NCBI GenBank assembly: GCA_049472395.1
Contig: JBLIRR010000001.1
Location: 197,940 to 261,939 of the forward strand
Direction of reading: 5' to 3'
Length of the DNA stretch: 64,000 nucleotides
From: a bacterium
GTDB lineage: Bacteria > SZUA-182 > DTGQ01 > JBLIRR01
Positions within the stretch are counted from its first letter, which is position 1; the number at the start of each line of letters is the position of its first letter. Positions 4,631 to 61,279 of this stretch are shown piece by piece. The notes beneath the pieces were generated by a model, which was given only the letters and a program-made list of their open reading frames with translations, was not told where the DNA came from and did not search any database. Position numbers and translations under genes: made by a program.

Positions 4631-6568
4631 ATGGACAATACGAGTGACAAATTTATTGTCCTTGGTACTGCAGGTCATATTGATCATGGAAAAACGACTC
4701 TCATTAAGGCCCTTACCGGTGTTGATTGTGACCGACTAAAGGAAGAAAAAAGAAGGGGAATCACCATTGAACTCGGATTCACTTCCTTACGCCTTCAAAA
4801 TCACCTTCACATTGGCATAATTGATGTGCCTGGCCATGAAAAATTTATTCATCATATGGTTGCGGGTGTAGGAGGAATAGATTGTGTATTGCTTGTTATT
4901 GCGGCCGATGAAGGTGTAATGCCTCAAACAAAAGAACATTTGGATATCTGTGAATTACTCGGAATCAAAAAAGGAATCATTGCCCTGACAAAAATTGATC
5001 TTGTCTCCGACGAATGGCTTGAATTAGTTATAGATGATATCCGTTCTTCTACGCAAAAAAGCTTTCTTGCCAATGTCCCAATTATTCCGGTCAGTTCACA
5101 AACAAAACAGGGATTGGATACATTAATCCAAACCATTACTCAATTAGCCGAGCACATAATACCTAAAAGAGATGATGGTAATTTTCGTCTCCCTATCGAC
5201 AGGGTATTTACCATGAAGGGTTTTGGCACGGTAGTCACAGGGACGGTTTTAAATGGAAGAGCAGAAGTCGGGGAGGCATTAGAAATCTTGCCTCAAAAAA
5301 TACCTGTTAAAATAAGAGGATTACATGTTTTTAATAAAAAAACCGACCGTATAGTATCAGGACAGCGCGCAGCGATTAATTTACAAGGAATTGAGAAAAA
5401 TAAAATCGAACGGGGTAATGTAGTCGCCCTAGCCCATACGCTCAAAGCTTCTTATATTCTCAATACCCATATCTCATTAGTCCCTCACAGCCCCCCTCTA
5501 AAAAATCGAACAAGGATTAGATTTCATTCCGGAACGAATGAGATTTTAGGCAGAATCATTTTATTAGATAGAGAAAAGCTTAAGGGTGGGGAGGCTGCGT
5601 ATGTGCAAATTAGATTGGAAAAAAAAATAGCAGTCCTTCCTTTTGATAACTTCGTCATTCGCACCTATTCACCTATCATCCTTGCAGGCGGAGGGCATAT
5701 CGTAGAAAATATTGCAACAAAAAGCAAAGGGACGAAGCTAAAATCTCTGATAAACGATTTAATCCTTCTCGATGAGGGTTCAAATGAGGAAAAAATCGAA
5801 TACTATATCAAAAAAAGCGGGGAAGAATGCATTGATCTTAAGAATCTTATTATGAGGAGCAATAATACTCAACGGGAACTTATTGAAATCCTTAATCAAT
5901 TATTGCTTAAAAAACGAATTATCAGCATAGATCCTCTTGCCTATAAAGTTGTCCATACGAGCATATACGAAAAATTATGTAATAGCCTCACAGCCTTTCT
6001 TACTTATTATCACCAACAATTTCCTTTAAGTGCGGGAGTCTCCAGAAAAGAGTTAAAAGAGAAACTTTCCCCGAGCGTGGATTCAAAATTATACACTATG
6101 ATTATAGAGAATCTCCAAAAAAATAATCGAATCACTGTGGAAAAAGAACTGATTAAGTTACAAGGGTATAAAATTTCTCTGTCAGCCAAAGAGGAATCCC
6201 TCTATCAAGCTATCTTAAAGATATATAAAGATATGAGTATCCATCCCCCAAAACTTGAAGAGATCTGCTCTCAAATGAAGATTGCTCGACATGAAGCGGA
6301 AAAGCTTATTCAGCTATTAATAGACAGGGGAGAGGTAATCCGTATAAATGAAGATTTTTTATTTCATCATGCGGCTATAACTTCTATAAAGCATAAACTC
6401 TTCTCTTTTTTTAAGCACACAAAAGATATTAATATAAGCAAATTTAAAGACCTCATTGGAATATCCCGAAAATATGCCATCCCTCTTCTTGAGTTCTTTG
6501 ACACTGAAGGGATCACCTTACGAATCGGTGATAAACGGATCCCTAGGAATCTAAACGGGTGGGAATAA
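4631..6568 (+). CDS. selB: selenocysteine-specific translation elongation factor SelB
   Basis: GTPase motifs GTAGHIDHGKTTL, DVPGHEKF and TKID. The 645-aa length includes C-terminal winged-helix extensions typical of SelB. Confidence 0.85.
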   Translation: MDNTSDKFIVLGTAGHIDHGKTTLIKALTGVDCDRLKEEKRRGITIELGFTSLRLQNHLHIGIIDVPGHEKFIHHMVAGVGGIDCVLLVIAADEGVMPQTKEHLDICELLGIKKGIIALTKIDLVSDEWLELVIDDIRSSTQKSFLANVPIIPVSSQTKQGLDTLIQTITQLAEHIIPKRDDGNFRLPIDRVFTMKGFGTVVTGTVLNGRAEVGEALEILPQKIPVKIRGLHVFNKKTDRIVSGQRAAINLQGIEKNKIERGNVVALAHTLKASYILNTHISLVPHSPPLKNRTRIRFHSGTNEILGRIILLDREKLKGGEAAYVQIRLEKKIAVLPFDNFVIRTYSPIILAGGGHIVENIATKSKGTKLKSLINDLILLDEGSNEEKIEYYIKKSGEECIDLKNLIMRSNNTQRELIEILNQLLLKKRIISIDPLAYKVVHTSIYEKLCNSLTAFLTYYHQQFPLSAGVSRKELKEKLSPSVDSKLYTMIIENLQKNNRITVEKELIKLQGYKISLSAKEESLYQAILKIYKDMSIHPPKLEEICSQMKIARHEAEKLIQLLIDRGEVIRINEDFLFHHAAITSIKHKLFSFFKHTKDINISKFKDLIGISRKYAIPLLEFFDTEGITLRIGDKRIPRNLNGWE

Positions 6569-36189: not shown

Positions 36190-36669
36190 TTATTTCCAGA
36201 TATAATTTAAAAGCTCTGCAAACTTATCATTCATATCGCGGAGCAAAGAACTCATGGTAAGGGCCACCTTTTTCATGATTTTATACCCGCAAAGGGGATT
36301 GTCCTCAACCAGTTTGTCAAACTTCTCCCGCTCTATCACTATTAATTTCGTTGGATTAATAACCTCAGCTGTTGCAGAATGGCTCCTTCTGTCAAAAAAA
36401 GAAAGCTCCCCAAAAAAATCTTCCTTTTCCAATAAGGCGAGGGTTTGTCGCTCTCCGTTTGAGAGAATCCGGCTGATTCTTACTTTGCCATTATAGATGA
36501 TAAAGAACTTATCCCCCTGCTCATGTTCTTTAAAGATTATTGTCCCCGCTTCATACTCTTTTAATTCTGAAATTGAGGCAATCTGAGATAATTCTTCATC
36601 AAAGAAATTATAAAAAAATGTTAATTGCCGCAATATATCTTTTTCCATTTTTTTGTTATTCTCCTTCAT
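36190..36669 (-). CDS. standalone cyclic-nucleotide-binding (cNMP/CAP-family) domain protein with no DNA-binding domain
   Basis: IIFKEHEQGDKFFIIYNGKVRI...FFGELSFF matches the CAP-type cNMP-binding fold. At 159 aa it has no HTH. It overlaps the fdhA stop by 14 nt. Confidence 0.65.
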   Translation of the reverse strand: MKENNKKMEKDILRQLTFFYNFFDEELSQIASISELKEYEAGTIIFKEHEQGDKFFIIYNGKVRISRILSNGERQTLALLEKEDFFGELSFFDRRSHSATAEVINPTKLIVIEREKFDKLVEDNPLCGYKIMKKVALTMSSLLRDMNDKFAELLNYIWK

Positions 36670-39322
36670 TAATTTTTTCTATATTTATAGCGCACACTTT
36701 ATATTCAGGGATCTTGGATACAGGATCTCGTGCGGAATTGGTTAAAAGATTTGCCGCTGCTTCATGGAAATGGAAGGGAATAAAAACCACCCCACGCGCA
36801 ACCCGAGGAGAAACTTTCGCTTTGAGCGTTATCTGTCCCCTGCGGGAGACTGCCTTCACCATCTGCCCATTTTGTATATCCAAAGAGGACGCATCATAAT
36901 CAGAAATCTCCATATAGGGCTCGCCACAGATTTCATCCAGTCCGGATTTACGCGTCATAGTTCCTGTATGGAAATGAAACAACATTCTCCCTGTGGTTAA
37001 AATAAAAGGATAGGATGCATCTCTTTCTTCTGCCGACGGTATATACTCAACAGGTATAATATTCTTTTTGCCCGCTGTATGGAGAATCGGCACTCCCGGA
37101 TCATTTTCACTTGTGCAGGGCCATTGCAGTCCGCCCTTCTCCAAGCGGTCATAACTTATGCCGGCATAAATCGGTGTCACTGAAGCGATTTCTTTCATAA
37201 TCTGGGAGGGGTGGGAATAGTCCATAGGATAGCCCATTTCAGTTGAAATATCACAGATTATCTGCCAATCCGGTTTTGCCTGGCCGGGGGAGGGAAGAGC
37301 CTTACGGACTAATTGGACGCGTCTTTCGGTATTGGTAAATGTACCATCCTTCTCAGCATAACTGGCAGCAGGCAATACAATATCTGCACGCTGGGCTGTT
37401 TCGGTTAAAAATATATCCTGCACCACAAAAAATTCCAATTTCTTGAGTATTTTCTCAAGATGCCCAATATCAGGATCTGAAAGCATGGGATTCTCTCCCA
37501 TAATAAAAAGGGCCTTGATCTCACCCCGGTCTATTGCCTCCATCATCTCCATAACCGTGAGCCCTGGTTTTGTTGAAAGAGTGCTTTTCCACGCATTTTG
37601 GAATTTTTGTGCCACTTCTATATCGCTCACCGCCTGATAACCCGGATATACATTCGGGAGGCAGCCCATATCGCAGGCTCCCTGAACATTATTTTGGCCA
37701 CGAAGCGGATTAACACCACTTCCCGGTTTTCCGAGATTCCCTGTTATTAAAGCAAGATCCGCCACGGCTTTCACATTATCCGTCCCTGTTATATGCTGTG
37801 TAATGCCCATTGTATAAAATATGGCAGCAGATTCTGCCTGAGCATACATTCGTGCTGCCTCACGTATCTGATTAGCCGGAACCCCTGTAGTGGATTCAAC
37901 ATAGTCTGGCGTATATTTTTTTAATGTTTCCTTAAGCTCCTTAAAACCCGTGGTGCGTTCCTTAATAAATTTTTTATCTTCCAAGCCTTCCTCGACAATC
38001 ACATGCATTATACCATTAAGCATCGCCACGTCTGTTCCGGGAATCTGACGAAGATAAATAGTTGCCCATCTGGCCAGATCTATTCTTCGAGGGTCGACTA
38101 TTATAAGCTTCGCGCCCTTTTTCCTTACGGCCTCCTTTATCTTAAGCCCGATTATCGGATGTGCCTCTGTCGTATTAGAACCAATAACAAGGATTACGTT
38201 CGCATCGACAATATCGGCAATGGAATTTGTCATTGCTCCGCTCCCCAATGTTGCGACCAGACCGGCCACTGTCGGAGCGTGTCAGAGCCGTGCACAATGA
38301 TCGACATTATTTGTGCCGATAACCGCCCTCATCCATTTCTGAAAAAGATAGTTTTCTTCATTGGTACATTTTGCCGAACTTAATCCTGCTATGGCATCTG
38401 CTCCATATTTATCCTTTATCTCGACGAGCCTTTCAGCGATCCTCATATACGCTTCATTCCACTCCATCGGGTCAAATCCCTTATAGGATTTACCAAGAGG
38501 AGTGGTTAGCCGCCTCTTGGAGGAAATAAACTCATACCCGAATCTCCCCTTACTGCAGAGATACCCTTCATTGACTGACTCCTCAGGGGAGGTAATCCGA
38601 ACAATCTCATCATCTTTTAACTGAAGTGCTAATTGGCACCCGCACCCACAATAGGGACACGTCGTTACAACTTCTTTTAATTGCCATGTTCTTCCCTTAT
38701 ATTTGGCAAGCTTCGAAGATAACGCACCCGTTGGGCACACGGCAACACATTGACCGCAAAATTCACAATCAAGAGGCTGATTAAACGCGGTTCCTATCCT
38801 TGTCGTAAAGCCTCTTTCTATAAAATCAATACCGCCTACTCCCTGGACCTCATCACATATACGAACGCATCGTCCGCATAAAATACATTTACCATGATCT
38901 CTCAGTATAAAAGGGTTAGTATCATCTACCGGATACTTATTCCTCTCTCCCTGAAATTTGTAGATATCAACCCTATATTCATAAGCGAGATCCTGAAGCT
39001 CGCATGATCCGCTCTGGTCACAGACAATAGACTCAAAAGAATGATCTGAGAGAATAAGTTCCAAGTTGGTCTTTCGAGCTGCCATTATTCGTTCGGATGT
39101 CGTATGGATTACCATATTTTCAGCTATCGGAGTAGCGCACGCCGGGACCAGCTTTGGAATTCTCTCCACTTCAACAAGACAAATTCTGCATGCTCCAAAA
39201 GGAGCAAGATGGCGATAATGACAGAGCGTTGGAATTCTAATGTTATTTTCCTGACATACCTCAAGAATCGTGGCGCCAAGTTCAGCATATACACGTTTCC
39301 CATCAATGTTTAATGTAATCAT
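36656..39322 (-). CDS. fdhA: formate dehydrogenase catalytic subunit (NuoG-like N-terminal FeS domains plus molybdopterin domain), a selenoprotein with an in-frame UGA at 38282-38284
   Basis: Track ORFs 38282..39322 and 36656..38269 are in the same frame and are separated only by TGA. The local sequence [30 protein letters not shown] is the canonical FDH selenocysteine motif. selB is present in the window. Confidence 0.85.
38230..38281 (-). other. SECIS-like stem-loop immediately 3' of the fdhA UGA codon
   Basis: mRNA CAC-GCUCCG-ACAGUGGCCGGUCUGGUCGCAACAUUGGGGA-CGGAGC. The 6-bp stem GCUCCG/CGGAGC starts 3 nt after UGA, and the apical region contains GGUCUG as in the E. coli fdhF SECIS. Confidence 0.45.
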
Positions 39323-41013: not shown

Positions 41014-41025
41014 TTTTTATGTGGA

Positions 41026-41535: not shown

Positions 41536-41550
41536 ACTTTGTTCTCCTTA

Positions 41551-45694: not shown

Positions 45695-45837
45695 TCACCA
45701 TTCTCCTTTGGCTTATCGTTCCCTTTACTCATTCGTTTCTTAAAAATCCGCTCCCATAATCATCTTGATTGTATAATAATTCAACTTTATAACCGGGGTT
45801 CTCATGTAAACGGATTTTTTAAGGCTCCTATCGTACT

Positions 45838-47190
45838 CTAAGAGGCGACATTATAAGACCGCAAAAACTTAGGAATATTGACCGCCTCTCTCGGCCCTAC
45901 CTGTATTTTCCAGCCAGGCAACTCTTCTTCGATCTCCCCTGACAATATGGCTACATAGCCCGGAATCACAAGTTCGCGATGTTTCAAATGCCCTTCCATA
46001 TTATTATTTTTTACTAACTTAGCTATCTTCGGCGCATTAAACTTATCCGCTGCCCAGGCAGTGAGCACTGACATGCCTTCACAATCAGCAACAAGCATCC
46101 ATGACGGCACTTTGCTCTCCTCTACTTCCCCCAACACAATAAAATAGGTAAGTGAAAAATTTGTCGTAATAAGAAGGGGTGAGTTTTCATCCGCATCGCC
46201 TATCTTATAAAGCTTTTCCTCAACTTGCATCGGCTGTTGCGGATCGGTAAAAATATTTTGCCTCACTGTAAATAAGGGAAGAAGTACTTCCTTTGACACA
46301 TCATCGATCACTACTATTGAGGCATACTTAAGAATTCCTATGCATGCACGCGCAGTGGCAAGGTCCGCATCATCAGTGTCTTCTGACGCCCACGCGATAG
46401 TGGGATACCCTAAGGCTTTAAATTTCTGTTTAATAGCGGCCCGTCGTATCTGAGTCATATCAGAAAGCTGGCTACCAGCCTTTCTGCCGCCGGAATCCAA
46501 AACTAAATCCTCTACACCAAGGGAAGCTGCCTTTTCTGCTAACGCGGCTAAAGCCTCGAGCCCTTCCGCTTTTATAACAAGAGGGCACCCCTTTGATTTC
46601 GCAAGACTCGCCATAGCATCAATAGATTGCTCTGTTGCCGCATAGAGCAGTGGCTTTCTCTCAGCGACAATTTCCAACCCAGCTTCTATTACTTTGTTAT
46701 CAGGTGCCGACAGGATCAGCGGCTTCTTGGTCTTTTCTGCGACCTGTTTCACCATTTGTTGATACTTTTGGGGATCTTGTGAGCATGATGTTAAGCAGAG
46801 CATTTCTACCCGCAACTTTTGGCCTACACGCTCAATTTCCGAATCCTCAACAGCCTGCACTTTTCTCTCAATCTCCTCGCGTGAGGACGTATCCTCAATA
46901 TTTGCCGCAAGGATTGTCGGGTGGTTGAATTTTTTTTCATGCCGAAAAAGAACCGTCTCATCACCAATCTCAACTGCTTCTTCGCCCTGACCAAGCTTAA
47001 TTAAACGAATGGGCGGCGCTGATGCTGCGCCCAAAAACTGCGTGGCTTCATCCGATACATAGGGACAATCACTCAGCTTTGCCTGGGCTGATGCGAGTCT
47101 CATGGCAAACGCAAGGCATGTAGGAAAATGACACTCCCCGCAATTTTTTTTCGGTAAATATTTAAAAATCTGGATACCAGTCAATGCCAT
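45838..47190 (-). CDS. acsC: corrinoid iron-sulfur protein large subunit
   Basis: N-terminal CGECHFPTC...C [4Fe-4S] motif followed by a TIM-barrel and a B12-binding-like region. Confidence 0.85.
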   Translation of the reverse strand: MALTGIQIFKYLPKKNCGECHFPTCLAFAMRLASAQAKLSDCPYVSDEATQFLGAASAPPIRLIKLGQGEEAVEIGDETVLFRHEKKFNHPTILAANIEDTSSREEIERKVQAVEDSEIERVGQKLRVEMLCLTSCSQDPQKYQQMVKQVAEKTKKPLILSAPDNKVIEAGLEIVAERKPLLYAATEQSIDAMASLAKSKGCPLVIKAEGLEALAALAEKAASLGVEDLVLDSGGRKAGSQLSDMTQIRRAAIKQKFKALGYPTIAWASEDTDDADLATARACIGILKYASIVVIDDVSKEVLLPLFTVRQNIFTDPQQPMQVEEKLYKIGDADENSPLLITTNFSLTYFIVLGEVEESKVPSWMLVADCEGMSVLTAWAADKFNAPKIAKLVKNNNMEGHLKHRELVIPGYVAILSGEIEEELPGWKIQVGPREAVNIPKFLRSYNVAS

Positions 47191-47240
47191 CTGTTTTTCT
47201 CCTCTACGTTCTTTATTTTATATTAATATCATACGTGTAT

Positions 47241-48182
47241 TTATAAATCAGCGAGGAGCTTTTTTACCACTCCCATTGCCTTGGGATGCCGCATAATGAG
47301 AAGATCCGATCCCGCCATCAAAAAGGCATTTGCCGTCATTGCTTCCCACATATACCCCCTGCGGCCAAGGTCTCCCCATTTCGGCTGCTCCTCTTGCGTT
47401 GCTCTTGTCTCTTTTATCTTCCAGGTCGTTATACAAATATCTGAAATAATAGGTGTTTGCATCATGGTATCACTTTGCAGCAAGGCAGCCATACGAATAC
47501 GTTCCATTACAGAGTATGTATACTCCAATCCGTAGCCAACCGTACTTGACATCGGATCAACAAGAATATTACTCACGTCAAATCCCGCTTGCGTTAACAA
47601 GATATTAAGCTGCTTGCACAGATTTATATCAAGATCCGAGACAGCCACTAATTTAAGGTTATACGCATTGGCCATGGCTGCAAATGTTTTATAATTCTTC
47701 TCTTGTGCTTTTCCAATAATCGAGTTGGTATTTACAAGAGCCTCCGATACTACCTTAAATACTTCAGCATCTTTTTCCACACTATTGGTCCCAAAAACCA
47801 TTAAAGGAATATTAATGGCTGCTTTTACCGCTTCAACCGTCTTTCTCGCCTCTTCCGGCGAACGATTCCCCTCATCGGGATGTGTTCCCAGCAAACGAAG
47901 GCATATCATATCCGCCTTTAATTCATCCTGACAATATGTGGCCCATCTGACAGGATCATTTATCACTCCTTCAGGATATTGAGATGAAACTTCAGTGGAA
48001 AAACCTTCAGGCAAAGTATCTGCTATCTCCATTGCAATAGGGATCTTCGGATTGGGTTTCCCCTCAAAAGAGAGAAAGGGCAATACTTCCGAGCCACCTA
48101 TAGTGCATGCATGATCACCCTGCCCAACCTCAATTTGATTAATTTTTCCATTATACATTTCTTTTGGTATACTAAAGGGCAT
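47241..48182 (-). CDS. acsD: corrinoid iron-sulfur protein small subunit
   Basis: 313-aa TIM-barrel protein adjacent to acsC, with conserved context. Confidence 0.75.
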   Translation of the reverse strand: MPFSIPKEMYNGKINQIEVGQGDHACTIGGSEVLPFLSFEGKPNPKIPIAMEIADTLPEGFSTEVSSQYPEGVINDPVRWATYCQDELKADMICLRLLGTHPDEGNRSPEEARKTVEAVKAAINIPLMVFGTNSVEKDAEVFKVVSEALVNTNSIIGKAQEKNYKTFAAMANAYNLKLVAVSDLDINLCKQLNILLTQAGFDVSNILVDPMSSTVGYGLEYTYSVMERIRMAALLQSDTMMQTPIISDICITTWKIKETRATQEEQPKWGDLGRRGYMWEAMTANAFLMAGSDLLIMRHPKAMGVVKKLLADL

Positions 48183-48212
48183 AATAGACTCCTTTTCTCC
48201 GGTTTACATTTT

Positions 48213-48992
48213 TTATTCTAAATACGAATGACAATATAATGTTTTATTTTGAATACAATCAACTGTTCTGATTGTCTTCATCATCATTTCATCCAAGGGA
48301 TCGATAATTGCAGCATCCAAGCCCACAGTCATCGCCATAGCAGCAAAAACACTATTAATAAGAGGGCGAAGATGCTCGGGACATCCGTTAGAGATATTAC
48401 TCAATCCGATTACGCTTTTCATGGGAGGATCATTCAATTCTTTAAACATCTGAATTGACTCAAATATTGCCGGAACCTGCTCCTGCTGACCATTAATGGG
48501 AATCATTATGGGATCAAGATAAATATTCTCTAACGGCACATTATATTCTGCGGCTGCCGCCATAATATCAGCAGCCAGGGCGCATCTCTCAGCACCATCG
48601 CGCGGCAGACCTCCCTTCGCTAAAGTAAGGGCAATGATATCACAATTATATTTCTGCGCAAGCGGCATAAATGCCGCAAGCCGTTCAGGCTCTGCAGATG
48701 TAGAGTTAATCATGGCCTTTTTATTACACACACGCAGACCTGCTTCCATCGCATCAACATTAGTTGTATCAAGACATAATGGCACATCAACCGCTTCCTG
48801 GAGATTTTTGACCATCCAGGTCATTAAATCCGGCCCATCCTTCCTCGCAGGTCCGATATTCACATCCAAAATATTCGCTCCTGCCTTTACTTGCTTCTCT
48901 GCAAAATCTTTTATTGGACCAAAGTCCCTTTGTTGCATCGCATCACGGATAATATTTGTTCTCACATTTATTCTCTCACCTATAACCAGCAT
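48213..48992 (-). CDS. acsE: methyltetrahydrofolate:corrinoid/iron-sulfur protein methyltransferase
   Basis: Pterin-binding domain (GERINV...GANILDVN) and the 259-aa length typical of AcsE. Confidence 0.85.
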   Translation of the reverse strand: MLVIGERINVRTNIIRDAMQQRDFGPIKDFAEKQVKAGANILDVNIGPARKDGPDLMTWMVKNLQEAVDVPLCLDTTNVDAMEAGLRVCNKKAMINSTSAEPERLAAFMPLAQKYNCDIIALTLAKGGLPRDGAERCALAADIMAAAAEYNVPLENIYLDPIMIPINGQQEQVPAIFESIQMFKELNDPPMKSVIGLSNISNGCPEHLRPLINSVFAAMAMTVGLDAAIIDPLDEMMMKTIRTVDCIQNKTLYCHSYLE

Positions 48993-49026
48993 ATCTTCTC
49001 CTTTCTATCACATTTATAAAAATATA

Positions 49027-49785
49027 TTAAAGCGTTAAAGTCTCGAATATCTTTGAAGAAGCGGTCACAGCGGGGCATTCTTCCGGAAGATCAATGAGAG
49101 GTTTCCCCTCTATGTCATACTTTTCCACTATTCGATCGTGCGGAATACTTCCGATAAACTCTACCCTCAACTGAGCAATAGCCGCATTGACCGCGCTTAC
49201 GTCAGCCGGCCCGTTAACCCGGGAAAGCACTAATGTTTTTCTTTTCACCTCAAGATTAAGCTCATCACATAACTCTTTAATACGCCCAACCGTTCTCAAG
49301 CCCCGCATATTCGCATCTGAGGTAATTATCATAAGATCTATATTTTGTGTTGTTCTTCTGCTTAAATGTTCTAATCCCGCTTCATTATCCATCACTTCAT
49401 AGGGATAATTTATGCCTATCTTGTCCGCATATTTTCTAATCAAATGATTGGCATAACAATAGCAGCCAGGACCCTCCGGCCTTCCCATACTCATGAGATC
49501 AAAGCCCTCTGCTTCAACAACACATTGATGAATCCTCATTTCAATATATTGCTCTTTTGGCATGCCCGCAGGAAGTTTATTGACTTCATCCATTGACTTT
49601 TCCCGCAAATGCCCCACTGTCATAGGTATTTCGACTCCCAATACCTCATGTAAATTTGCATTGGCGTCAGCATCTATAGCGAGGATCGGCGTTTTTCCTT
49701 TTTTTATTAAATATCGTATTATCAAAGCAGCCAAGGTGGTCTTCCCTGTACCCCCTTTGCCCGCTAATGCTATTGTATATGCCAT
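49027..49785 (-). CDS. cooC: CODH nickel-insertion accessory ATPase CooC/AcsF
   Basis: Deviant Walker A GKGGTGKTT at the N-terminus, MinD/ParA-like. 252 aa. Confidence 0.85.
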   Translation of the reverse strand: MAYTIALAGKGGTGKTTLAALIIRYLIKKGKTPILAIDADANANLHEVLGVEIPMTVGHLREKSMDEVNKLPAGMPKEQYIEMRIHQCVVEAEGFDLMSMGRPEGPGCYCYANHLIRKYADKIGINYPYEVMDNEAGLEHLSRRTTQNIDLMIITSDANMRGLRTVGRIKELCDELNLEVKRKTLVLSRVNGPADVSAVNAAIAQLRVEFIGSIPHDRIVEKYDIEGKPLIDLPEECPAVTASSKIFETLTL

Positions 49786-52616: not shown

Positions 52617-53516
52617 TTAAAGAACGCCTGTTGCGGTCGTAATTGGTGCGGTCGTAACTGGTGCGACAGGGGTAGTATCAACAACAGGTGCTGTTACTGG
52701 ACTTGTTGTTCCCAATCCAAGGAGGGAATACCATGGACTCATCATTCCCATTCCATACATTCCACCCATACCATAAAGGCCACCATAGCCATACATATTA
52801 CCGTAGCCACCAAATGGTGAGGTGAGCGTTGAGGTATCCAGCGTACCCCACCACGGATAGTGGCTACCAAACATGCCGCCCATACCATAGGGAGAGGTAA
52901 GAGACGTAGTATCTAGGCCGCTCGGAGTATACCAGCGTCCAAACATGCCACCCATCCCGTAGGGATTGGTGAGAGTTGTCGTGTCTACTGTACCCGTGCT
53001 GGTAGGCGAATACCATCTTCCGAACATACCGCCCATACCGTAGGGAGAGGTAAGAGTTGTCGTGTCTACTGTACCCGTGCCGGTAGGCGAATACCATCTT
53101 CCGAACATACCGCCCATCCCATAGAGGGAGCTAAGAGTCGTGGTGTCTATTGTGCTTGTATCAGTAGGCGCATACAACCGGCCAAACATACCACCCATGC
53201 CATAGGGGTAACTGAGGCTTGTTGTATCTAAACTACCTGGATAATATCCGCCAAACATCCCTCCCATACCGAAAAGGCCTGCACCATAACCGCCATAGCC
53301 ACCATAGCCACCGTAACCACCGTAACCGCCAAGGCCACCCGTAAATGGTCTATAACCATACATTCCAGTATTTTGCACTCCATACCCCCCCATTAGTCCT
53401 AGTCCATACATATTGCCTGAAAAGAATTGGGCTTGGCTCTTAGGAGCAGATACAATTACAAATGAAATGATAAGCAGCACTGAAAATAAAATTTTAAAAT
53501 ACTCTCTCTTTAACAT
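52617..53516 (-). CDS. secreted Gly/Tyr/Met-rich repetitive protein (signal peptide, GYGGYGGYGG block, about six 27-aa repeats DTTTLTSPYGMGGMFGRWYSPT.TGTV, and a Thr/Pro/Val-rich tail)
   Basis: Signal peptide ending SQA. Shine-Dalgarno GAAGGAAGG. Strong periodicity at both the protein and nucleotide level. The alternative-frame ORF 52864..53097 is a shadow of the repeats. Confidence 0.6.
   Translation of the reverse strand: MLKREYFKILFSVLLIISFVIVSAPKSQAQFFSGNMYGLGLMGGYGVQNTGMYGYRPFTGGLGGYGGYGGYGGYGGYGAGLFGMGGMFGGYYPGSLDTTSLSYPYGMGGMFGRLYAPTDTSTIDTTTLSSLYGMGGMFGRWYSPTGTGTVDTTTLTSPYGMGGMFGRWYSPTSTGTVDTTTLTNPYGMGGMFGRWYTPSGLDTTSLTSPYGMGGMFGSHYPWWGTLDTSTLTSPFGGYGNMYGYGGLYGMGGMYGMGMMSPWYSLLGLGTTSPVTAPVVDTTPVAPVTTAPITTATGVL
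52975..53136. repeat. two near-identical 81-bp tandem copies inside the Gly/Tyr-rich gene, flanked by more degenerate copies (about 52800-53235)
   Basis: Copy 1 at 52975-53055 and copy 2 at 53056-53136 differ at only a few positions. Confidence 0.8.
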
Positions 53517-53851: not shown

Positions 53852-56833
53852 TTACAATGTGAGCCCAAAGTAAATACTATAGGATGGATAATCCTCACTA
53901 TTCTCTATTTTTCCTAGCGGGATAGCACCTTTTAAATATACATGACTTAACCGATTCGGCCAATAATAGAAGGAATATCGTAGTGATCCTTCAGCAGATA
54001 TAAGCGTATCTTGGATATCATCATAATGTTTTAAATCACCAACCTCTATCTTAACTCCCGCGCTCATCCTTTCAAACCAGGAAACTTTATTACATACTGA
54101 AATAAAGGGATTAAACCGTAATTCCGCATACGCTCGAAATAATTGCCGCGCATATATGCTCCCATATGAATACCCGCTGAACATCTCTTCATGGCCTAAA
54201 ATTTCATACATAAATAGAGGTCCTTTGTGTGAGCGTATCTTTGTGAAATAAGAGAATCCATCCGTACCAAATCGCAGTGACATCCTCCTGTCAAAGAACA
54301 CTGCATTTTTCCCTAGGCCAAAATGTATTTTGGGCACACTACATGGCTTATAAAGAAACATGCTTTCTTTATATGACGAAAAACCAGGATATCTATTATT
54401 ATAAAGATCGATACCTGCATTGGCTTTAAAACTTGGTTGACCAAGTGTTCCAGGATCGAATGTGCTTCGCCCTGTATAGTGGAGCCAATCAAAACTCCAA
54501 TGATCACATTTATAGATAATACCATCATTCCTGCTCAGAATGCCGGTACCCGATTCACTATAGACCAGGGTGGGATCTGTGAGGGTATATTTGCTTTTTC
54601 GTGTGCGCCATTCATAACTATATGCAGCAGTAAGAATATCATCTTGGCAAAGATTGTATTGTGCACTTGTCTTCAGCTCCGTACTGTCATACATTTCAGC
54701 AATATACATCTCTATACTATCATTATACATATACACAATTTCATTAAAAAATTTTTGTAAAGAAACCTCTTCTTTTACAGAAAATTTCCAGATATCACAT
54801 TCACCCCACACTGTAGCAGACGGATAGATTTCCGGCACTGTTTTATACCCGAATAATCTGTTTATATTCAGGTTAAGCCCAGATTTAAAATTCCCGGGTG
54901 CATTATCCAAAAAAAATGTTCCGCCGAGAATCAGCTGGTTTTTGCTGTCAACGATTTCATCAGTAAAAGGTCGATATCTTATTTTATTAAAGCCTATAAA
55001 ATATTGGGGCATTGACACCATATTCGATTCGACCTCTCTGCTTTGAGGAGTATCAGCCAAAGCAGCTGTAACTTTCGATCTGGCCTCAACGGGCTTTATC
55101 CTGTCGGAAATAATAATGGGGCGCTCTTTTGAAAAAGGATTATTAAGTTTATATATGGTAAAACAGCCATCCTCATATACTGAACATGTCACAGTGCTCA
55201 TATTATTCTTATTGTCAATGCATGGATATCGCACCCCACCTCCCACATCAGTTATTTTATACCAGGTATTCTCATCTTCCTTCATATTGCACCAGTAAAG
55301 CTGTGGAGTTCCATCGAGAGTACTGACAAATAGAAGTCGGTCTGATCCAGCATATATACAATCAATAATATACGCATCTAAATTCTCCCAGAGGATATCG
55401 AATGAATCCTCTTTTAAAATGCCTGCTTTTACTTTACCCTCAGTTCCAATTGATATTACTGCTGATTGTGGTGTAATTTGTGAGATTTTATACACTCCCT
55501 GGCCATAATCAAATATCTTTAAGGTTTGAGGCGAAGATTTATTGGGATCCTGTAACACAATTTTGGTTTTCCCATTATTATATGACGCATACATAAGGTG
55601 ATTGTCATACACATCAAAGGCTATGCATCGTTTATCAGTTGTTGCCCGCTCAGGCTCGCCATCTTTATTTAATTTGAAAATATCATATCTTACACCACTT
55701 GAGAGTCTGCTGTTAACCCGTTTATTAAACCAAATTGTATTGGTAACAGAATCTTGCGTAAGGACCATGCCAACATCCTCTATTACCTTCTTAATATTCT
55801 TTTTATCCTCAGACATAATCATAAGATCATACCTGTTGTAATCATGCCTCCAATTGGCAATGGTATACATGCCTTCATCAACCGTGGCGACTTCAAAATT
55901 CATGAGCCGCTTTTTTCTCTCAAACAGAGGACTCCCATCTATCAGGTGATCCTTTTGGGGGTATTTGATCTTTAAGGTTTCTCTCCAATCTTCATATATC
56001 TGCTCAATAGTCTTGCCATAATGGGAAATAATCGCCTTCTCAAATCGCTCTTTTCGAATGAGACGACAAAGATCCTTAATGGATTTTTGAGGATAGTTAT
56101 GTACAAGGTAGAGCAGCAAATCAAAACCTTGATTATAGGCAAGCTCGGATTCTCTGGAACTTCCTTCAAAGCGTGCCATTTCATCAATGGTGAGAAGCCT
56201 GTTATGATAAAATGAATCCCTTAACAGCATTTCTCTAAAAGGATCCCGATACTCCGCCTTAAATTCATATGAACCCAATTGTGCGATACCTTCCACAAAC
56301 CATATAGGTAGCGCATTATGCTGATACTCGACAATCGACATCACGTTTTCTCCCTTAGGTTCAGAATAGTTTAACAGGCTGAGAGCAACAAGCATTGAGG
56401 ATTGTAATACTCGAAGAGAATAAATATGGGATAATTCATGAGACACAATTGTCCTGAGCCATTCATTTTCCCCGCGCATAAACATATCCGCTTTCCGGCA
56501 CTCTATGACCACGAGAGAATTATATCTATTTGCGCTTCCATTTATATAATCATTATTATTTTTTATAACGATCGCTATTTTTTTTTCATTAATATCATAT
56601 CCAAAATAATCCGCGAGCGTGTGGGCTGTCTCTTCAGCAATATCTAGGGTCATAAGGGCCAAATCTTTGTTTTTCTCCTTATATGAAATTTTAAAATGGT
56701 CGCTCTCAAGATGCTCCCATGTATTGAAAAGTTTACTACTTGCGACATTCGGTATAAGTGAGCATAGTATCATCCACCACACTATTCTCATTTTGAATGA
56801 TCTTTTTAAGGTAGCAGGCATATTTTTACTCAT
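53852..56833 (-). CDS. large secreted or outer-membrane protein with an N-terminal HExxH region, a beta-propeller-like (TolB/WD40-like) middle and a beta-barrel-like C-terminus (hypothetical)
   Basis: Signal-like N-terminus (RIVWWMILCSLIPNVASS), HELSHIY motif, repeated beta-strand-rich segments and a C-terminus rich in alternating aromatic residues (YSIYFGLTL). Confidence 0.55.
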   Translation of the reverse strand: MSKNMPATLKRSFKMRIVWWMILCSLIPNVASSKLFNTWEHLESDHFKISYKEKNKDLALMTLDIAEETAHTLADYFGYDINEKKIAIVIKNNNDYINGSANRYNSLVVIECRKADMFMRGENEWLRTIVSHELSHIYSLRVLQSSMLVALSLLNYSEPKGENVMSIVEYQHNALPIWFVEGIAQLGSYEFKAEYRDPFREMLLRDSFYHNRLLTIDEMARFEGSSRESELAYNQGFDLLLYLVHNYPQKSIKDLCRLIRKERFEKAIISHYGKTIEQIYEDWRETLKIKYPQKDHLIDGSPLFERKKRLMNFEVATVDEGMYTIANWRHDYNRYDLMIMSEDKKNIKKVIEDVGMVLTQDSVTNTIWFNKRVNSRLSSGVRYDIFKLNKDGEPERATTDKRCIAFDVYDNHLMYASYNNGKTKIVLQDPNKSSPQTLKIFDYGQGVYKISQITPQSAVISIGTEGKVKAGILKEDSFDILWENLDAYIIDCIYAGSDRLLFVSTLDGTPQLYWCNMKEDENTWYKITDVGGGVRYPCIDNKNNMSTVTCSVYEDGCFTIYKLNNPFSKERPIIISDRIKPVEARSKVTAALADTPQSREVESNMVSMPQYFIGFNKIRYRPFTDEIVDSKNQLILGGTFFLDNAPGNFKSGLNLNINRLFGYKTVPEIYPSATVWGECDIWKFSVKEEVSLQKFFNEIVYMYNDSIEMYIAEMYDSTELKTSAQYNLCQDDILTAAYSYEWRTRKSKYTLTDPTLVYSESGTGILSRNDGIIYKCDHWSFDWLHYTGRSTFDPGTLGQPSFKANAGIDLYNNRYPGFSSYKESMFLYKPCSVPKIHFGLGKNAVFFDRRMSLRFGTDGFSYFTKIRSHKGPLFMYEILGHEEMFSGYSYGSIYARQLFRAYAELRFNPFISVCNKVSWFERMSAGVKIEVGDLKHYDDIQDTLISAEGSLRYSFYYWPNRLSHVYLKGAIPLGKIENSEDYPSYSIYFGLTL

Positions 56834-57032: not shown

Positions 57033-57093
57033 TAAAATAAAAAAAGGTATCAGCCTTACTTAGGGAATGAGAACCCTAAGTAAGCATGATACC
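57033..57093 (-). terminator. strong intrinsic terminator candidate downstream of EF-hand paralog A
   Basis: Minus-strand GGTATCATGCTTACTTAGGG-TTCTCATT-CCCTAAGTAAGGCTGATACC (about 18/20 bp stem) followed by TTTTTTTTATTTTAT. Confidence 0.55.
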
Positions 57094-57119
57094 CTTAATT
57101 TATCAGAGATTTTAACTCT

Positions 57120-58445
57120 CTATAGACTATTAATAAAACACGTATTGTTCTCTGGACCAGATTGTGTCTGAACAGGTTCTATCTGCATTGTATCGGCTGC
57201 ATTGCCTGCTGATGCAGCTTCATTACTACTGTTGCTCTCAAATACAAACTGGTATACGAGGGAATGAGCTCCATCACCCACTGCATCAACCTCAGCGACA
57301 TACACTACTCCATTTGTCCAATCATCAGCATCAGGATCTGCTTTTTGCATATTAATCTTTTCACCCGGATCATCAAAATCAGCTTCGTTCCATGTAATTA
57401 TCCCATCATTATTAAGATCTACAGAGTCATAATTTAAGTCTACCCATAGCTGTGATACTGCCGGTGGTGCATTCGCCTGATCATCAACCGGATACACATA
57501 TCGAACCCTGAAGATGAAATGATTATCTCCCTCATTTATCAACGTAGGATACACAGCTTCCAATTTAAAATCTGCAAATTCACCAGCAGAATTCTCTGCA
57601 CCGTTTAACGCTGACAAATCCAGGGTTTCTCCAGTAAAACTGAGGCTCCCGGTAATCTCAGGATCAGCACCAATATATTGAATATCTAATTGTGGCCTTA
57701 AATTTTTATCATCAACATCTGAGGTATAGTATTCTATATACTCGTCTCCGTCAAAGCTCACTTCCTCTGCTGTTCTTGAACTTATCAGGGTTATTTTGGT
57801 GAATTCCCCAGGTTTAATGATATCATAAGGTCTTACTATTTCAATCACATTTGCCTGACCAACCTCAAACTCACCGGAGCTTATTGCACCATGTTCGGAT
57901 CCGGTAATCGCACCCCATTCAATATTCCAGAGGGGCTCCTCCCAATCCGATTCATAGATCCCGATATTGAATTGACCATCATTATCAATATTCTTTTCTT
58001 TTCCATAAAGAGTCAAGCTGGCAGATGTGACGATCGCATCATAAGGAAGAGATGTGGTATCAAAACTCATATATCCCTTAAAGATGGAAAATGAACCATC
58101 ATAGATCTGCCCTACTTTGGCTGTTTCTGCTGCAACTGTGGTGGTAAAGGTATTACCCTTACTTGAACCACTAACATCAGGCACGCCATCTATTGCTCCA
58201 CGTGCACCTTTTTTACTGCCGCCACTTCCAGCAAACGCCCTGTTCCCACCACCATAAGCACCTGAGCCCTTTATATTTTTATCTCCTGTAGAAAAAGTTC
58301 CAAGTGCAGTACTTTTTGATTTCATTTCCCCTGAGGAAGTGGTTGGACCAAGTGTTATAGATGCTGCATCAGTTATATTTGGCATAATAAAGAACATGCC
58401 TACCATTAAACTTATAATAGCAAAAATACATAAATATCTCTTCAT
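57120..58445 (-). CDS. secreted hypothetical protein with a canonical EF-hand Ca-binding loop (paralog A)
   Basis: Signal peptide MKRYLCIFAIISLMVGMFFIMPNITDA. Gly/Ser-rich N-terminal region. DLNNDGIITWNE fits the 12-residue EF-hand loop. About 60 percent identical to the next gene. Confidence 0.6.
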   Translation of the reverse strand: MKRYLCIFAIISLMVGMFFIMPNITDAASITLGPTTSSGEMKSKSTALGTFSTGDKNIKGSGAYGGGNRAFAGSGGSKKGARGAIDGVPDVSGSSKGNTFTTTVAAETAKVGQIYDGSFSIFKGYMSFDTTSLPYDAIVTSASLTLYGKEKNIDNDGQFNIGIYESDWEEPLWNIEWGAITGSEHGAISSGEFEVGQANVIEIVRPYDIIKPGEFTKITLISSRTAEEVSFDGDEYIEYYTSDVDDKNLRPQLDIQYIGADPEITGSLSFTGETLDLSALNGAENSAGEFADFKLEAVYPTLINEGDNHFIFRVRYVYPVDDQANAPPAVSQLWVDLNYDSVDLNNDGIITWNEADFDDPGEKINMQKADPDADDWTNGVVYVAEVDAVGDGAHSLVYQFVFESNSSNEAASAGNAADTMQIEPVQTQSGPENNTCFINSL

Positions 58446-58725
58446 GAGCCTATTTATACCTCCCTTTGCATCATGGCTTACATCAATAATAAACCTTTAA
58501 TTAAATTAACTTCTTCTCTCAAACATCCGTACTGATATATTGTGAGCATCTTCTTACATAGTGTCTAAATGCTATTCTTTAACCTCTTCCCCATCGCTCT
58601 TCTTGAATAGTGCTTGTTATATATTCTTGATTATCATACCCCCTTCTCTTTAATTTATTGTTTATGATGCGAGACAATCCTGTCTCTTAATTCCCCCCGT
58701 GTGTACTTTGCTTATTTATATATCA

Positions 58726-58741
58726 TGCAAATATCATTCCT
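58726..58741 (-). promoter_or_regulatory. sigma-54 (-24/-12) promoter candidate upstream of paralog A
   Basis: Minus-strand AGGAATGATATTTGCA (AGG-N8-TTGCA), about 282 nt upstream of the start, implying a roughly 270-nt leader. Confidence 0.4.
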
Positions 58742-58800
58742 CTATCCATTTAATGTTTATCTGTTAAGAATAAAGAGTCTGTGACTGAACATATTCTCCT

Positions 58801-60180
58801 CTATTGATTTAAAGTATAATTTTTAGACATCTGTTCATATACACTATTAATAAAACATGTACTACCCTTAGAACCGGCATTTGCTTGAACCGGCGCTATC
58901 TGCATAATTTCAGCAGCATTTCCTACTAACGCGCGCGCTTTAGTGGCGCTGCTATCTTCAAATACAAATTGAAACACCAAAGGATGCACTCCGTCACCCA
59001 CCACTTCAACCTCGGCTTGATAAATTACTCCGTTTGTCCAATCATCAGAATCAGGGTCGGTTTTATACATGTCAATTTTCTCACCACTATCATCGAAATC
59101 AGCTTCATTCGAGTCTATATTGCCATCAGAATTCTCATCCATAGAATCATAATTTAAATCTACCCATACCTGGGAAAGACTTGGGGGCGCATCAGAAAAA
59201 TTATCGAATGGATAAATATATCGCACCCGAAATATTACATGATTATCTCCTTTATTTATGAGAGTAGGATACGCTGCCTCCAATTTAAAATCCGCCATCT
59301 CATCATCTCCAAATTCTTCCGTCTTAGTGAGATCTGCCAATTCTATTGTCTCTCCCGTAAAACTAAGGCTTGGCGCAATAGAAGGATCATCGCCAATCCA
59401 CACAACATCTAACTGCGGACGTAGAGTGGGATTTGCTGCATCTGAGGTATAATACACGATATATTCATCTCCGTTGATGTTCTGGGACTCTTCAACTGTT
59501 CTTGAGCTCACCAAGGTTATTTTGGTAATTTCTCGAGGTTTGATAATATCAAAGGGTCTTGTGATAGTAATCTCATTGGGTTGACCATCAACCTTAAATT
59601 CACTGACACTTATTTGCCCGTGTTCAGATCCGCTTATGGCTCCCCATTCAATATTCCAGAGGGGTTCCTCCCAATTCGATTCATAGACACCGATTCCAAA
59701 TTCAATTTCATTATCATTATGCTTTTCTTTTCCATATATAATCAAGGTCGCTGAGGTAATAATGGCATTGTAAGGAATAGAGGTAGTGTCAAAACTCATA
59801 TAACCCTTGAAGATCGAATACGATCCGTCATACGTTTGACCTACTTTTGCCGTATCTGCTGACACTGTGGTGGTAAAAACATTACCCTTACTGGTACCAT
59901 TTGCACTAATGTCGGGCACACCATCAAGTGCGCCACGCGCTCCGTATTTACTCCCCCCAAAACCTGAATAGGCCCTGCTTCCCCCTCCATAGGCATAACT
60001 GCCTTTTATTTCCTTATTCCCCGTGGAAAAACTCCCTAATAATGAACTTCGTGATTCCATGTACCCAGAGCTTGCGGATGACCTGATTCCCTTAAGAGAC
60101 GCTGCATATATTGTTTGTGGAGTATAAAGGAGTAGTCCTCCTATAACACCTATGAGAGTAAAAATACATAGATATTTCAT
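58801..60180 (-). CDS. secreted hypothetical protein with a canonical EF-hand Ca-binding loop (paralog B)
   Basis: The likely start is ATG at 60178-60180 (MKYLCIFTLIGVIGG...) preceded by GAAGGGGAG; the track ORF begins at a TTG at 60201. DENSDGNIDSNE fits the EF-hand loop. It shares high nucleotide identity with paralog A over long stretches. Confidence 0.6.
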   Translation of the reverse strand: MKYLCIFTLIGVIGGLLLYTPQTIYAASLKGIRSSASSGYMESRSSLLGSFSTGNKEIKGSYAYGGGSRAYSGFGGSKYGARGALDGVPDISANGTSKGNVFTTTVSADTAKVGQTYDGSYSIFKGYMSFDTTSIPYNAIITSATLIIYGKEKHNDNEIEFGIGVYESNWEEPLWNIEWGAISGSEHGQISVSEFKVDGQPNEITITRPFDIIKPREITKITLVSSRTVEESQNINGDEYIVYYTSDAANPTLRPQLDVVWIGDDPSIAPSLSFTGETIELADLTKTEEFGDDEMADFKLEAAYPTLINKGDNHVIFRVRYIYPFDNFSDAPPSLSQVWVDLNYDSMDENSDGNIDSNEADFDDSGEKIDMYKTDPDSDDWTNGVIYQAEVEVVGDGVHPLVFQFVFEDSSATKARALVGNAAEIMQIAPVQANAGSKGSTCFINSVYEQMSKNYTLNQ

Positions 60181-60319: not shown

Positions 60320-60335
60320 TGCAAATATCATTCCA
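60320..60335 (-). promoter_or_regulatory. sigma-54 (-24/-12) promoter candidate upstream of paralog B
   Basis: Minus-strand TGGAATGATATTTGCA (TGG-N8-TTGCA), about 140 nt upstream of the ATG. The 14 nt GGAATGATATTTGC are identical to the paralog A site. Confidence 0.5.
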
Positions 60336-60481
60336 TATTCTTATCCCCCTCATTTTCTTAGGTTTCTCTGGGAGAATGCTGATGGAGTGATTAATAATTT
60401 TTATAAACTTATAGTGAGCAGTTTAATTTTTACACAAATAGTATTATAATAATTCACGCGAGAATATGACTGAAACCCTGA

Positions 60482-61279
60482 ATGGATATATTTGAAATGC
60501 AGGTACGTTCAATAAAATATAGAATTTTTATTTTTCTCTTCCTCTGTCTTTTTCCGGGCAGAGGCTTTAGTGCGGCACAAACCGCCCAACAATCACTCAC
60601 GGACTACAACCTATGGAATTTATATGGAGGAGCCAGCGATGTATACCTTACGCTCAAAGATGGATCACATAAAAAAACAAAGGTACCCTTAAAGGAATAT
60701 GGCTTTTTATTGGAATTTGAGGATAAATATGACAAATGGAAGGTTGATTTTTCATTTTTCCAATGGAACGATAGTCAACTGCAAGGGGAAGATTTCTCAG
60801 TAAAGCTGAACTATCTTCCATTTAAAACCAAAAAAGGGGGGATCTTTACCCGGCTTAATCCCTATATAGGAGGCTCCCTTAATTACCATTACAACAAAAT
60901 AAATCTTCCTGACGCTAATCCGGAGCCCACTGGTTGGGTTAATCCTTATCAGCAGGCTATAAAAGGATATGGCGCAGGATTGCAGACGGGGATGAAGATT
61001 AAGGATATCCCTTTTAAAGGCACTATATGGCACACAGAACTTGGCGGCATAGTCTATACGTATAAATCCTCCTTACTGGAAGAAGAATTTCTGTCTGGCA
61101 TCTCTTTTACCCTAGATACGCATTTTAAAAAAAGATTTTATTATATTTTCCTTGGATTAGGGTATCAATTGAGACAATCAGATTTTGATGGTACTTATTT
61201 AAGCGATCAAGATAAATATTATCCGAGCTCTCAATTTACCCATCATCTTTTTTATATTAATCTTTCTTATCCGTTTTAG
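60482..61279 (+). CDS. putative outer-membrane beta-barrel protein (hypothetical)
   Basis: N-terminal signal (FIFLFLCLFPGRGFSAAQT), alternating hydrophobic beta-strand patterning and a C-terminal ...YINLSYPF ending in Phe. An alternative start lies at 60497. Confidence 0.45.
   Translation: MDIFEMQVRSIKYRIFIFLFLCLFPGRGFSAAQTAQQSLTDYNLWNLYGGASDVYLTLKDGSHKKTKVPLKEYGFLLEFEDKYDKWKVDFSFFQWNDSQLQGEDFSVKLNYLPFKTKKGGIFTRLNPYIGGSLNYHYNKINLPDANPEPTGWVNPYQQAIKGYGAGLQTGMKIKDIPFKGTIWHTELGGIVYTYKSSLLEEEFLSGISFTLDTHFKKRFYYIFLGLGYQLRQSDFDGTYLSDQDKYYPSSQFTHHLFYINLSYPF

Follow-up and report, generated by a model that had tools for sequence, protein, structure and literature searches.

Two anciently duplicated genes for candidate surface-type proteins with an EF-hand-like loop and a Cys-Phe-Ile tail in a bacterium of the SZUA-182 lineage

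We analyzed a 64,000-nucleotide stretch of contig JBLIRR010000001.1 (assembly GCA_049472395.1, positions 197,940 to 261,939 of the forward strand), hereafter the window, from a bacterium of the GTDB lineage SZUA-182; DTGQ01; JBLIRR01, and within it a tandem pair of minus-strand genes that we call A and B. The reading that we favor, with somewhat better than even confidence, is that A and B, from a diderm anaerobe, encode modular surface-type proteins that are exported and anciently duplicated; these would bind glycans, carry a calcium loop, be anchored through a C-terminal Cys-Phe-Ile tail (CFI-box) and be regulated by sigma-54. The functions in this reading, namely glycan binding, Ca2+ binding, anchoring through the cysteine and partnership with a neighboring outer-membrane barrel, are all ones that we infer. 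A preliminary description of this DNA, made from the sequence alone, had proposed two tandem genes for proteins of about 440-460 amino acids (aa), and the two open reading frames (ORFs) bear this out:

57120..58445, minus strand: gene A, an ORF of 441 aa, matching P0001 (NCBI ACMUJM_01010), A-type clade
58801..60180, minus strand: gene B, an ORF of 459 aa, matching P0006 (NCBI ACMUJM_01015), B-type clade
58365..58445, minus strand: signal peptide of A, residues 1-27 (MKR, a hydrophobic core, then TDA with the cut before A), read from the sequence
60103..60180, minus strand: signal peptide of B, residues 1-26 (...IYA with the cut before A), read from the sequence and aligned with A

The two products share one architecture. 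A consists of a signal peptide, a Gly-rich segment, a DNRLRE-like domain, a beta-sandwich module with a putative calcium loop and the CFI-box, and ends in ...TCFINSL; B has the same parts plus a 13-residue extension past the CFI-box. Pairwise alignment over 446 aa gives 65% identity and 80% positives. We place the start of B at the ATG at 60180, which has the Shine-Dalgarno sequence GAAGGGGAG; the mechanical ORF extends to a TTG at 60201, and the 459-aa product counted from the ATG is the one annotated by NCBI (P0006).

The N-termini are alike and signal-peptide-like, as had been described (MKRYLCIF... in A, MKYLCIF... in B), and residues 3-19 of A form a helix in its AlphaFold model. The Gly/Ser-rich character ascribed to the N-terminal segments is confirmed by composition, with 38-40% Gly plus Ser at residues ~29-105 versus 19-20% in the whole proteins. 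A shared C-terminal motif had also been reported: TCFINS is identical in both proteins, but it is not the very end of B, where 13 more residues follow. The proposal that these are secreted, surface-type proteins is supported, since A and B look exported and consist of surface-protein modules.

The preliminary description took the duplication to be recent and pointed to long stretches of high nucleotide identity. The latter is overstated: the best 30-codon window reaches 84% nucleotide identity and the longest exact match is 23 nucleotides. Over all aligned codons the genes are 70.7% identical in bases, and the same codon is used for just 56% of the residues that are identical in A and B. In a neighbor-joining tree, the copies from three genomes, namely that of the window and two metagenomic ones, L001 (JGI 3300021183) and L003 (GCA_049472375.1), fall into one A-type and one B-type clade; the latter holds gene B and the first genes of L001 and L003. 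The three genomes also have the gene order in common: a divergent outer-membrane-like gene, the B-type gene, the A-type gene, a gene for a Peptidase_MA_2 protein of ~1000 aa and a gene of ~300 aa. Separate clades together with the same order in three genomes indicate that the duplication is older than the divergence of these genomes. On this sequence evidence the duplication of A and B is ancient and not recent, and tree and codon usage alike exclude a recent duplication or gene conversion. As a pair the genes persist in related genomes, with B followed by A in both L001 and L003, and A- and B-type copies are always retained together in the close clade.

The family is small. A search of 5.8 billion clustered proteins returned 13 relatives (clusters), all derived from metagenomes or metagenome-assembled genomes, and the source contig (356,932 bp) accounts for only A and B. 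Eight loci were found among 185,579 species genomes; the relatives are 33-42% identical and single-copy. Three further short contigs with family genes, from a metagenome scan, added tails and gave no usable gene context.

The first folded part of both proteins is a beta-sandwich:

57681..58157, minus strand: DNRLRE/CBM96-like beta-sandwich of A, residues 97-255 (NF033679, 33.6 bits; Foldseek)
59404..59868, minus strand: DNRLRE/CBM96-like beta-sandwich of B, residues 105-259 (NF033679, 36.7 bits)

The Gly-rich segment contains many residues that are invariant in the family (GGG.R, K.GA.GA.DG.PD, KGN.FT.T) and is left unmodeled in the AlphaFold model of A. This model, built on a 13-sequence alignment, contains two beta-sandwiches, at residues 108-258 and 292-424, the first with a predicted local distance difference test score (pLDDT) of 61-90. 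As modeled, the fold of this first domain resembles CBM96/DNRLRE. With the NCBIfam model DNRLRE_dom (NF033679, cutoff 34 bits), B scores above the cutoff and A just below it, coverage is nearly complete in both (positions 11-163 of 164), and NCBI's annotation of one family member reads DNRLRE domain-containing protein. The domain thus lies at about the cutoff of the sequence model, and its structural model superposes on CBM96 structures: the top Foldseek match in the PDB is 8wab, a chondroitin-sulfate-binding carbohydrate-binding module (CBM; E 1.3e-6, target TM 0.63), followed by 7vbo, an alginate-binding CBM (E 2.6e-4, target TM 0.54). A sequence search of the PDB gave only chance-level matches to spike proteins (E about 0.1). 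According to the paper that founded CBM96, its module is ~30% identical to DNRLRE-domain members (PMC9971899).

By analogy with the characterized CBM96 modules, the N-terminal domain of A and B may bind polysaccharide. The characterized modules are attached to polysaccharide lyases, whereas no catalytic domain was detected in A or B in Pfam and NCBIfam scans. It is very improbable indeed that A and B are instead enzymes, disaggregatase-like or lyase-like, with an extracellular matrix polymer as their target. Such an activity would fit the history of the DNRLRE domain, whose first description came from archaeal disaggregatase and S-layer proteins (PMC9971899), and the weak Pfam Disaggr_repeat matches in 3 of 13 members (best E 0.051); yet the scans showed no catalytic domain, the two folded parts are beta-sandwiches of a binding or stalk kind, and the characterized members of CBM96 are non-catalytic (PMC9971899).

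The second beta-sandwich holds the loop on which the preliminary description had centered:

57174..57572, minus strand: C-terminal beta-sandwich module of A, residues ~292-424 (AlphaFold strands, pLDDT 65-86)
58891..59292, minus strand: C-terminal beta-sandwich module of B, residues ~297-430, by alignment to A
57384-57419, minus strand: EF-hand-like 12-residue loop of A, DLNNDGIITWNE, residues 343-354, within a 14-residue insertion
59104-59139, minus strand: EF-hand-like 12-residue loop of B, DENSDGNIDSNE, residues 348-359

Among 1.84 billion representative proteins, a profile search returned 2148 matches, many of them to proteins of 2,000-6,800 aa. Profile positions ~260-415 recur in giant proteins, with up to 32 matched stretches (P0024, 6,784 aa), and a hidden Markov model of the module finds 339 copies in 92 of the 162 retrieved proteins. 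The module consensus from the giant-protein repeats, P..IQVWIDxNDDGDYxDxGEKxxM...DGKxY, has a W-x-D-x-N-x-D-G loop as its hallmark; since the repeats carry DxNxDG in their consensus, a loop of this type is intrinsic to the module. The giant-protein repeats overlap matches of Pfam GEVED (PF20009), which is defined as a stalk-type domain of fibrillar adhesins (PMC10952558), and 4 of 13 family members match GEVED weakly (best E 2.6e-4). The likeness of A and B to GEVED/CshA-type stalks therefore lies in the homology of their module to giant surface-protein repeats that overlap GEVED. They differ in having a single copy instead of arrays and in being small proteins of about 440 aa.

The 12-residue EF-hand-type loops are present in A and B exactly as first written. 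Both fit the EF-hand pattern D-x-[DN]-x-D-G-x-I-x-x-x-E exactly, as D-x-N-x-D-G-x-I-x-x-x-E, and the pattern is kept in 8 of 8 close-clade proteins. In these eight proteins, A and B included, 14 residues are inserted to give WVDLNYDS-VDLNNDGIITWNEA-DFDDPGE. In the distant half of the family the region reads WIDLNFDGDFDDPGE, with the ancestral D-L-N-x-D-G-D-F-D-D-P-G-E, and the whole 14-residue loop is missing. Among homologues, the EF-hand residues are thus conserved in all close-clade proteins but not in the distant half. The repetition of VDLN(Y/N)D(S/G) hints at a local duplication as the origin of the insertion.

In the AlphaFold model, residues 337-362 form a 26-residue coil (pLDDT 77-86) between strands 328-336 and 363-365, with no flanking helices. 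As modeled, the loop accordingly sits in a beta-sandwich with no helix-loop-helix, and A and B have no second, paired motif of the kind usual in EF-hands. Pfam EF-hand models give no match for A or B at E <= 1, and Pfam has no Dockerin match either; dockerin type I requires two tandem 22-residue segments versus the one loop seen here. Missing helices, missing profile matches and a loop that is absent from distant relatives together indicate that the loop pattern is real but that there is no EF-hand domain, and the EF-hand assignment of the preliminary description does not hold beyond the pattern. A and B would be EF-hand or dockerin-like proteins, with the single loop as functional core for Ca2+ sensing or Ca2+-dependent docking, only under a reading that we regard as very unlikely. 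The perfect fit of the loops, their conservation throughout the close clade and weak Pfam EF-hand_5 matches in 3 of 13 members (best E 0.004) speak for it. It is contradicted by the distant half of the family, in which the loop is deleted and everything else, CFI tail included, is kept, by the lack of flanking helices in the model, of a second loop and of EF-hand or dockerin matches, and by the loop itself, which varies a DxNxDG loop that belongs to the module and recurs in hundreds of beta-sandwich repeats. As a loop of DxDxDG type, to judge from its residues, it would be expected to bind Ca2+.

Both proteins end in a tail with a conserved cysteine:

57123..57152, minus strand: CFI-box of A, ENNTCFINSL, with Cys436 (NF041763, 12.2 bits)
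58849..58857, minus strand: Cys-Phe-Ile of B, residues 442-444, followed by NSVYEQMSKNYTLNQ

Cys-Phe-(Ile/Met) is invariant in 28 of 28 family members examined. It is preceded by a Ser/Asp/Gly-rich linker and followed by 5 to 42 poorly conserved residues (5 in A, 17 in B), and its cysteine is the only one of mature A and of mature B, one more being located in the signal peptide. The same ending, a Ser/Gly-rich linker with CFI, is found on the unrelated giant proteins P0031, P0041, P0042, P0043 and P0078 (example GGGSGGSGNCFISAIKHVFTSEQVKWWAW). In an NCBIfam scan of the tails, the sole model matched was NF041763, "CFI-box putative sorting motif" (cutoff 15.9 bits): relative P0013 scores 17.3, above the cutoff, P0061 15.6 and other relatives 14.8, 13.7 and 13.5. 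It is in the linker, the Cys-Phe-Ile and this one relative that the A/B family resembles the catalogued motif. A literature search for the CFI-box found no paper describing it. The preliminary description had overlooked the two features that tell most about these proteins, the DNRLRE/CBM96-like domain and the correspondence of CFINS to this catalogued motif. In the window, no other CFI-tailed protein was found; the only other C-terminal CFI is GVCFIDRL, a known motif of peptide deformylase.

The 13 extra residues of B are encoded by DNA that holds the conserved upstream motif of A's promoter (see below), which fits a tail whose sequence is unimportant. We note that the subgroup with 42-residue tails (L002, L004, L005, L006, L007, L015, L016) ends in [VLF]-S-[IF]-[SPN]-F, which resembles the C-terminal signature of outer-membrane proteins and the ...YPF end of a neighboring barrel protein, and that several giant CFI-box proteins end in ...KWW(A/M)W.

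Known MYXO-CTERM-type signals consist of a cysteine after a Ser/Gly cluster, then a transmembrane helix and an Arg cluster, and are cut by CPBP/Rce1-like myxosortases (10.1101/2023.06.07.544157; PMC11980579). The A/B family is similar in that an invariant cysteine ends a Ser/Gly-rich cluster near the C-terminus of otherwise unrelated exported surface proteins. It differs in that both the transmembrane helix and the Arg-rich cluster are missing and that no CPBP protease was seen among the neighboring genes scanned. A tripartite sorting signal is ruled out for A and B by the lack of a hydrophobic segment after the cysteine; consequently, the known Cys-type sorting mechanism is not simply transferable to the CFI-box.

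A different use of the cysteine would be an intermolecular disulfide, in an A-B heterodimer or in homodimers, with A and B as soluble, unanchored secreted or periplasmic glycan binders. This is unlikely in our judgment, even though each mature protein has exactly one cysteine, the close clade always has both types of copies, the cysteine is not followed by a transmembrane segment and no sorting enzyme was identified nearby. Distant single-copy relatives still keep CFI, the flanking Phe-Ile and the Ser/Asp/Gly-rich linker are conserved as well, and unrelated giants carry the same ending, which is listed as a sorting motif. Retention in single-copy relatives, presence on unrelated giants and conserved flanks point to a common recognition machinery rather than to simple pairing.

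Upstream of each gene lies an element of sigma-54 type, and further features surround the pair:

60320..60335, minus strand: sigma-54-type -24/-12 element of B, TGGAATGATATTTGCA, conserved in L001 and L003
58726..58741, minus strand: sigma-54-type -24/-12 element of A, AGGAATGATATTTGCA, conserved in L001 and L003
56896-56911, minus strand: sigma-54-like element of the Peptidase_MA_2 gene, TGGTATAGTTGTTGCA, with counterparts at L003 7865 (TGGTATATATGTTGCA) and L001 11647 (TGGAATATTTTATGCA)
60421..60436, minus strand: upstream motif TGTGTAAAAATTAAAC, about 100 nucleotides before the B promoter
58814..58829, minus strand: upstream motif TGTCTAAAAATTATAC, about 89 nucleotides before the A promoter, within the last codons of B
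58446..58714, minus strand: predicted leader of A, ~270 nucleotides
57036..57104, minus strand: intrinsic terminator after A, a long hairpin with a U-run (-38.3 kcal/mol, z = -6.7)

The 15-mer GGAATGATATTTGCA, with GG-N10-GC spacing, has exactly two copies in the window, at 58726-58740 and 60320-60334, upstream of A and B on their coding strand. Both elements thus have GG and GC doublets 10 nucleotides apart, in a pattern resembling TGGCAC-N5-TTGCW; the loose form of the pattern has a background of 0.126 per 560 nucleotides. GGAAY-N5-TTTGCW is kept at 6 of 6 A/B promoters of the three genomes, in intergenic surroundings with a mean column identity of 58-62%, and like elements precede distant family members (TGGCAATCATATTGCAT in L009, TGGCAGTAATTTTGCAG in L010 and TGGTATTAATTATGCAT in L008). 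The proposal that each gene has its own sigma-54-type promoter is therefore backed by conservation in three genomes at the level of the motif, from which promoter activity may be presumed. A further motif, TGT[GC][TC]AAAAATTA[AT]AC, lies 89-108 nucleotides upstream of 4 of 6 sigma-54-type promoters in the three genomes, and is a possible activator binding site.

Provided that the promoter is real, the leader of ~270 nucleotides attributed to A stands, and L001 and L003 have A-type leaders of similar length. The check for a conserved RNA structure in it was negative: a single-sequence z of -0.46, a three-genome consensus fold of -2.45 kcal/mol and the lack of an Rfam family all speak against a structured leader RNA. 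We note in the same leader a mini-ORF at 58617-58637 (minus strand), whose Shine-Dalgarno sequence and ATG (TAAAGAGAAGGGGGTATGA) are conserved in the three genomes; it runs for 4-15 codons and shows no conservation of its peptide. A leader peptide, a standby ribosome site and a relic of the duplicated gene start are all conceivable explanations. The strong terminator proposed after A is corroborated by its folding energy and by equivalent hairpins in L001 (z = -5.2) and L003 (z = -5.9); between B and A, nothing terminator-like was found. A sub-threshold Rfam match to mir-1252 at 57037-57103 on the plus strand (38.4 bits vs 70) is a false lead, being the A terminator hairpin on the opposite strand.

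The pair is flanked by two genes of particular relevance:

60482..61279, plus strand: divergent outer-membrane beta-barrel, 265 aa, ending in ...SYPF (AlphaFold and Foldseek)
53852..56833, minus strand: Peptidase_MA_2 protein, 993 aa (Pfam), downstream of A and co-located only in the close clade

The divergent neighbor has about 12 strands in AlphaFold, with only 1 of 5 models confident. Its Foldseek matches in the PDB are solely outer-membrane beta-barrel proteins, with OpcA first (E 4.6e-5), and no Pfam or NCBIfam model matches it. Only 4 close sequences exist among 5.8 billion proteins. In the same divergent position, three other loci have proteins of 307-329 aa that end in ...YPF (L002 8477-9463, L004 4301-5224, L007 8353-9342), and these are remote homologues of the barrel (hhalign probability 85.6%, E 5.5e-6, 219 columns, three sequences a side). 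The barrel gene accompanies a family gene in 6 of 11 loci, from two clades, and this linkage is suggestive, not conclusive, of the barrel as a partner of A and B. Taken further, the CFI-box could be a new C-terminal envelope anchor for Gram-negative surface proteins that is recognized by its lone cysteine, needs no transmembrane segment and has the divergent barrel as its dedicated docking or export partner, a proposal that we regard as a long shot.

The Peptidase_MA_2 protein has 39 homologues in several phyla, the closest about 40% identical, e.g., in Candidatus Magnetomorum. Judging from the promoter elements, a single small RpoN regulon may comprise B, A and the peptidase gene. Further downstream, a 299-aa protein (52617-53516, minus strand) is conserved in the three genomes at about 50% identity, has no Pfam match and may belong to the same gene group as B, A and the peptidase gene.

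Elsewhere in the window, a Wood-Ljungdahl cluster spans 34300-49785 and includes formate-tetrahydrofolate ligase, carbon monoxide dehydrogenase/acetyl-CoA synthase subunits and subunits of an NADH-dependent formate dehydrogenase; the calls of a corrinoid protein (CdhD) and a CooC-like ATPase come partly from synteny with L001. The gene for the formate dehydrogenase alpha subunit (36656..39322) has an in-frame TGA at 38282-38284 (minus strand; ...VDHCARL*HAPTVAGL...) that splits it into two same-frame ORFs and is almost certainly a selenocysteine codon; a gene for the SelB elongation factor lies at 4631..6568. Two Band_7 genes after the cluster were assigned through 78-83% identity to the Band_7 genes of L001, and the gene order from the cluster towards A/B is common to the window and L001. 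The host is probably an acetogen-like or CO2-fixing anaerobe.

Several observations weigh against our reading of A and B as glycan-binding, CFI-anchored and sigma-54-regulated surface proteins. The AlphaFold model is mediocre (mean pLDDT 57.6), with the Gly-rich segment and the tail unmodeled. Pfam CBM96 (PF24517) reaches only 15.0 and 16.0 bits against a cutoff of 26, over profile positions 41-87, and the GEVED profile (cutoff 24.4 bits) matches neither A nor B, in which no GEVED sequence motif is visible. With the CFI-box model, A stays below the cutoff (E 0.11) and the tail of B gives no match; neither a transmembrane segment nor an Arg cluster follows the CFI cysteine (maximal Kyte-Doolittle 19-residue mean <= 1.3, and 0.8-1.2 in the 42-residue tails). 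Among the 34 of 45 large window ORFs scanned against Pfam, there is no CPBP-type protease, no rpoN (sigma-54) gene and no gene for an enhancer-binding protein. Over the whole window, the loose sigma-54 pattern is no commoner than expected (6 found vs 5.8 expected), so that the case for sigma-54 rests on position and conservation. The barrel neighbor is missing from 5 of 11 loci with enough flank. In other genomes, the three Peptidase_MA_2 homologues that were checked in context have no family gene nearby, so that the adjacency of the peptidase to A and B looks lineage-specific; the peptidase as a dedicated processing enzyme was rejected on the same grounds.

With these points considered, we propose the following mechanism for A and B as surface-type proteins. 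Both would be exported through Sec-type signal peptides, as read from their sequences. The DNRLRE/CBM96-like beta-sandwich would then bind polysaccharide, as characterized CBM96 modules do, and the single C-terminal module, of the kind repeated in giant surface proteins elsewhere, would hold Ca2+ in its W-x-D-x-N-x-D-G loop. In the close clade, the 14-residue insertion, probably a local V-D-L-N-x-D-x duplication, would have made the loop of this module canonical and EF-hand-like. The CFI-box, by analogy with Cys-type C-terminal sorting signals, may act as a processing or attachment signal that retains the protein at the cell envelope, with a dispensable tail, and the linkage to the divergently encoded outer-membrane barrel suggests that A and B may work with it. 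B, A and the peptidase gene would each be transcribed from their own sigma-54-type promoter, with transcription ending at the terminator after A. An adhesion or matrix function, as first suggested, would be a reasonable one for A and B.

In sum, A and B are built from catalogued parts and represent no new calcium-signaling or EF-hand system. They do indicate that a canonical EF-hand loop can arise by a 14-residue insertion in the DxNxDG loop of a beta-sandwich, which calls for caution with EF-hand assignments made from the loop pattern only. With their conserved sigma-54-type promoters and the upstream motif, the three adjoining genes are candidates for a small RpoN regulon in a lineage still without a cultured member. 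The A/B family also offers a compact, single-cysteine model substrate for the CFI-box, a motif that ends giant surface proteins as well; if the CFI-box does prove to be an anchor of the kind proposed, its logic would recall the CaaX box of eukaryotes more than signals of the sortase or exosortase type.

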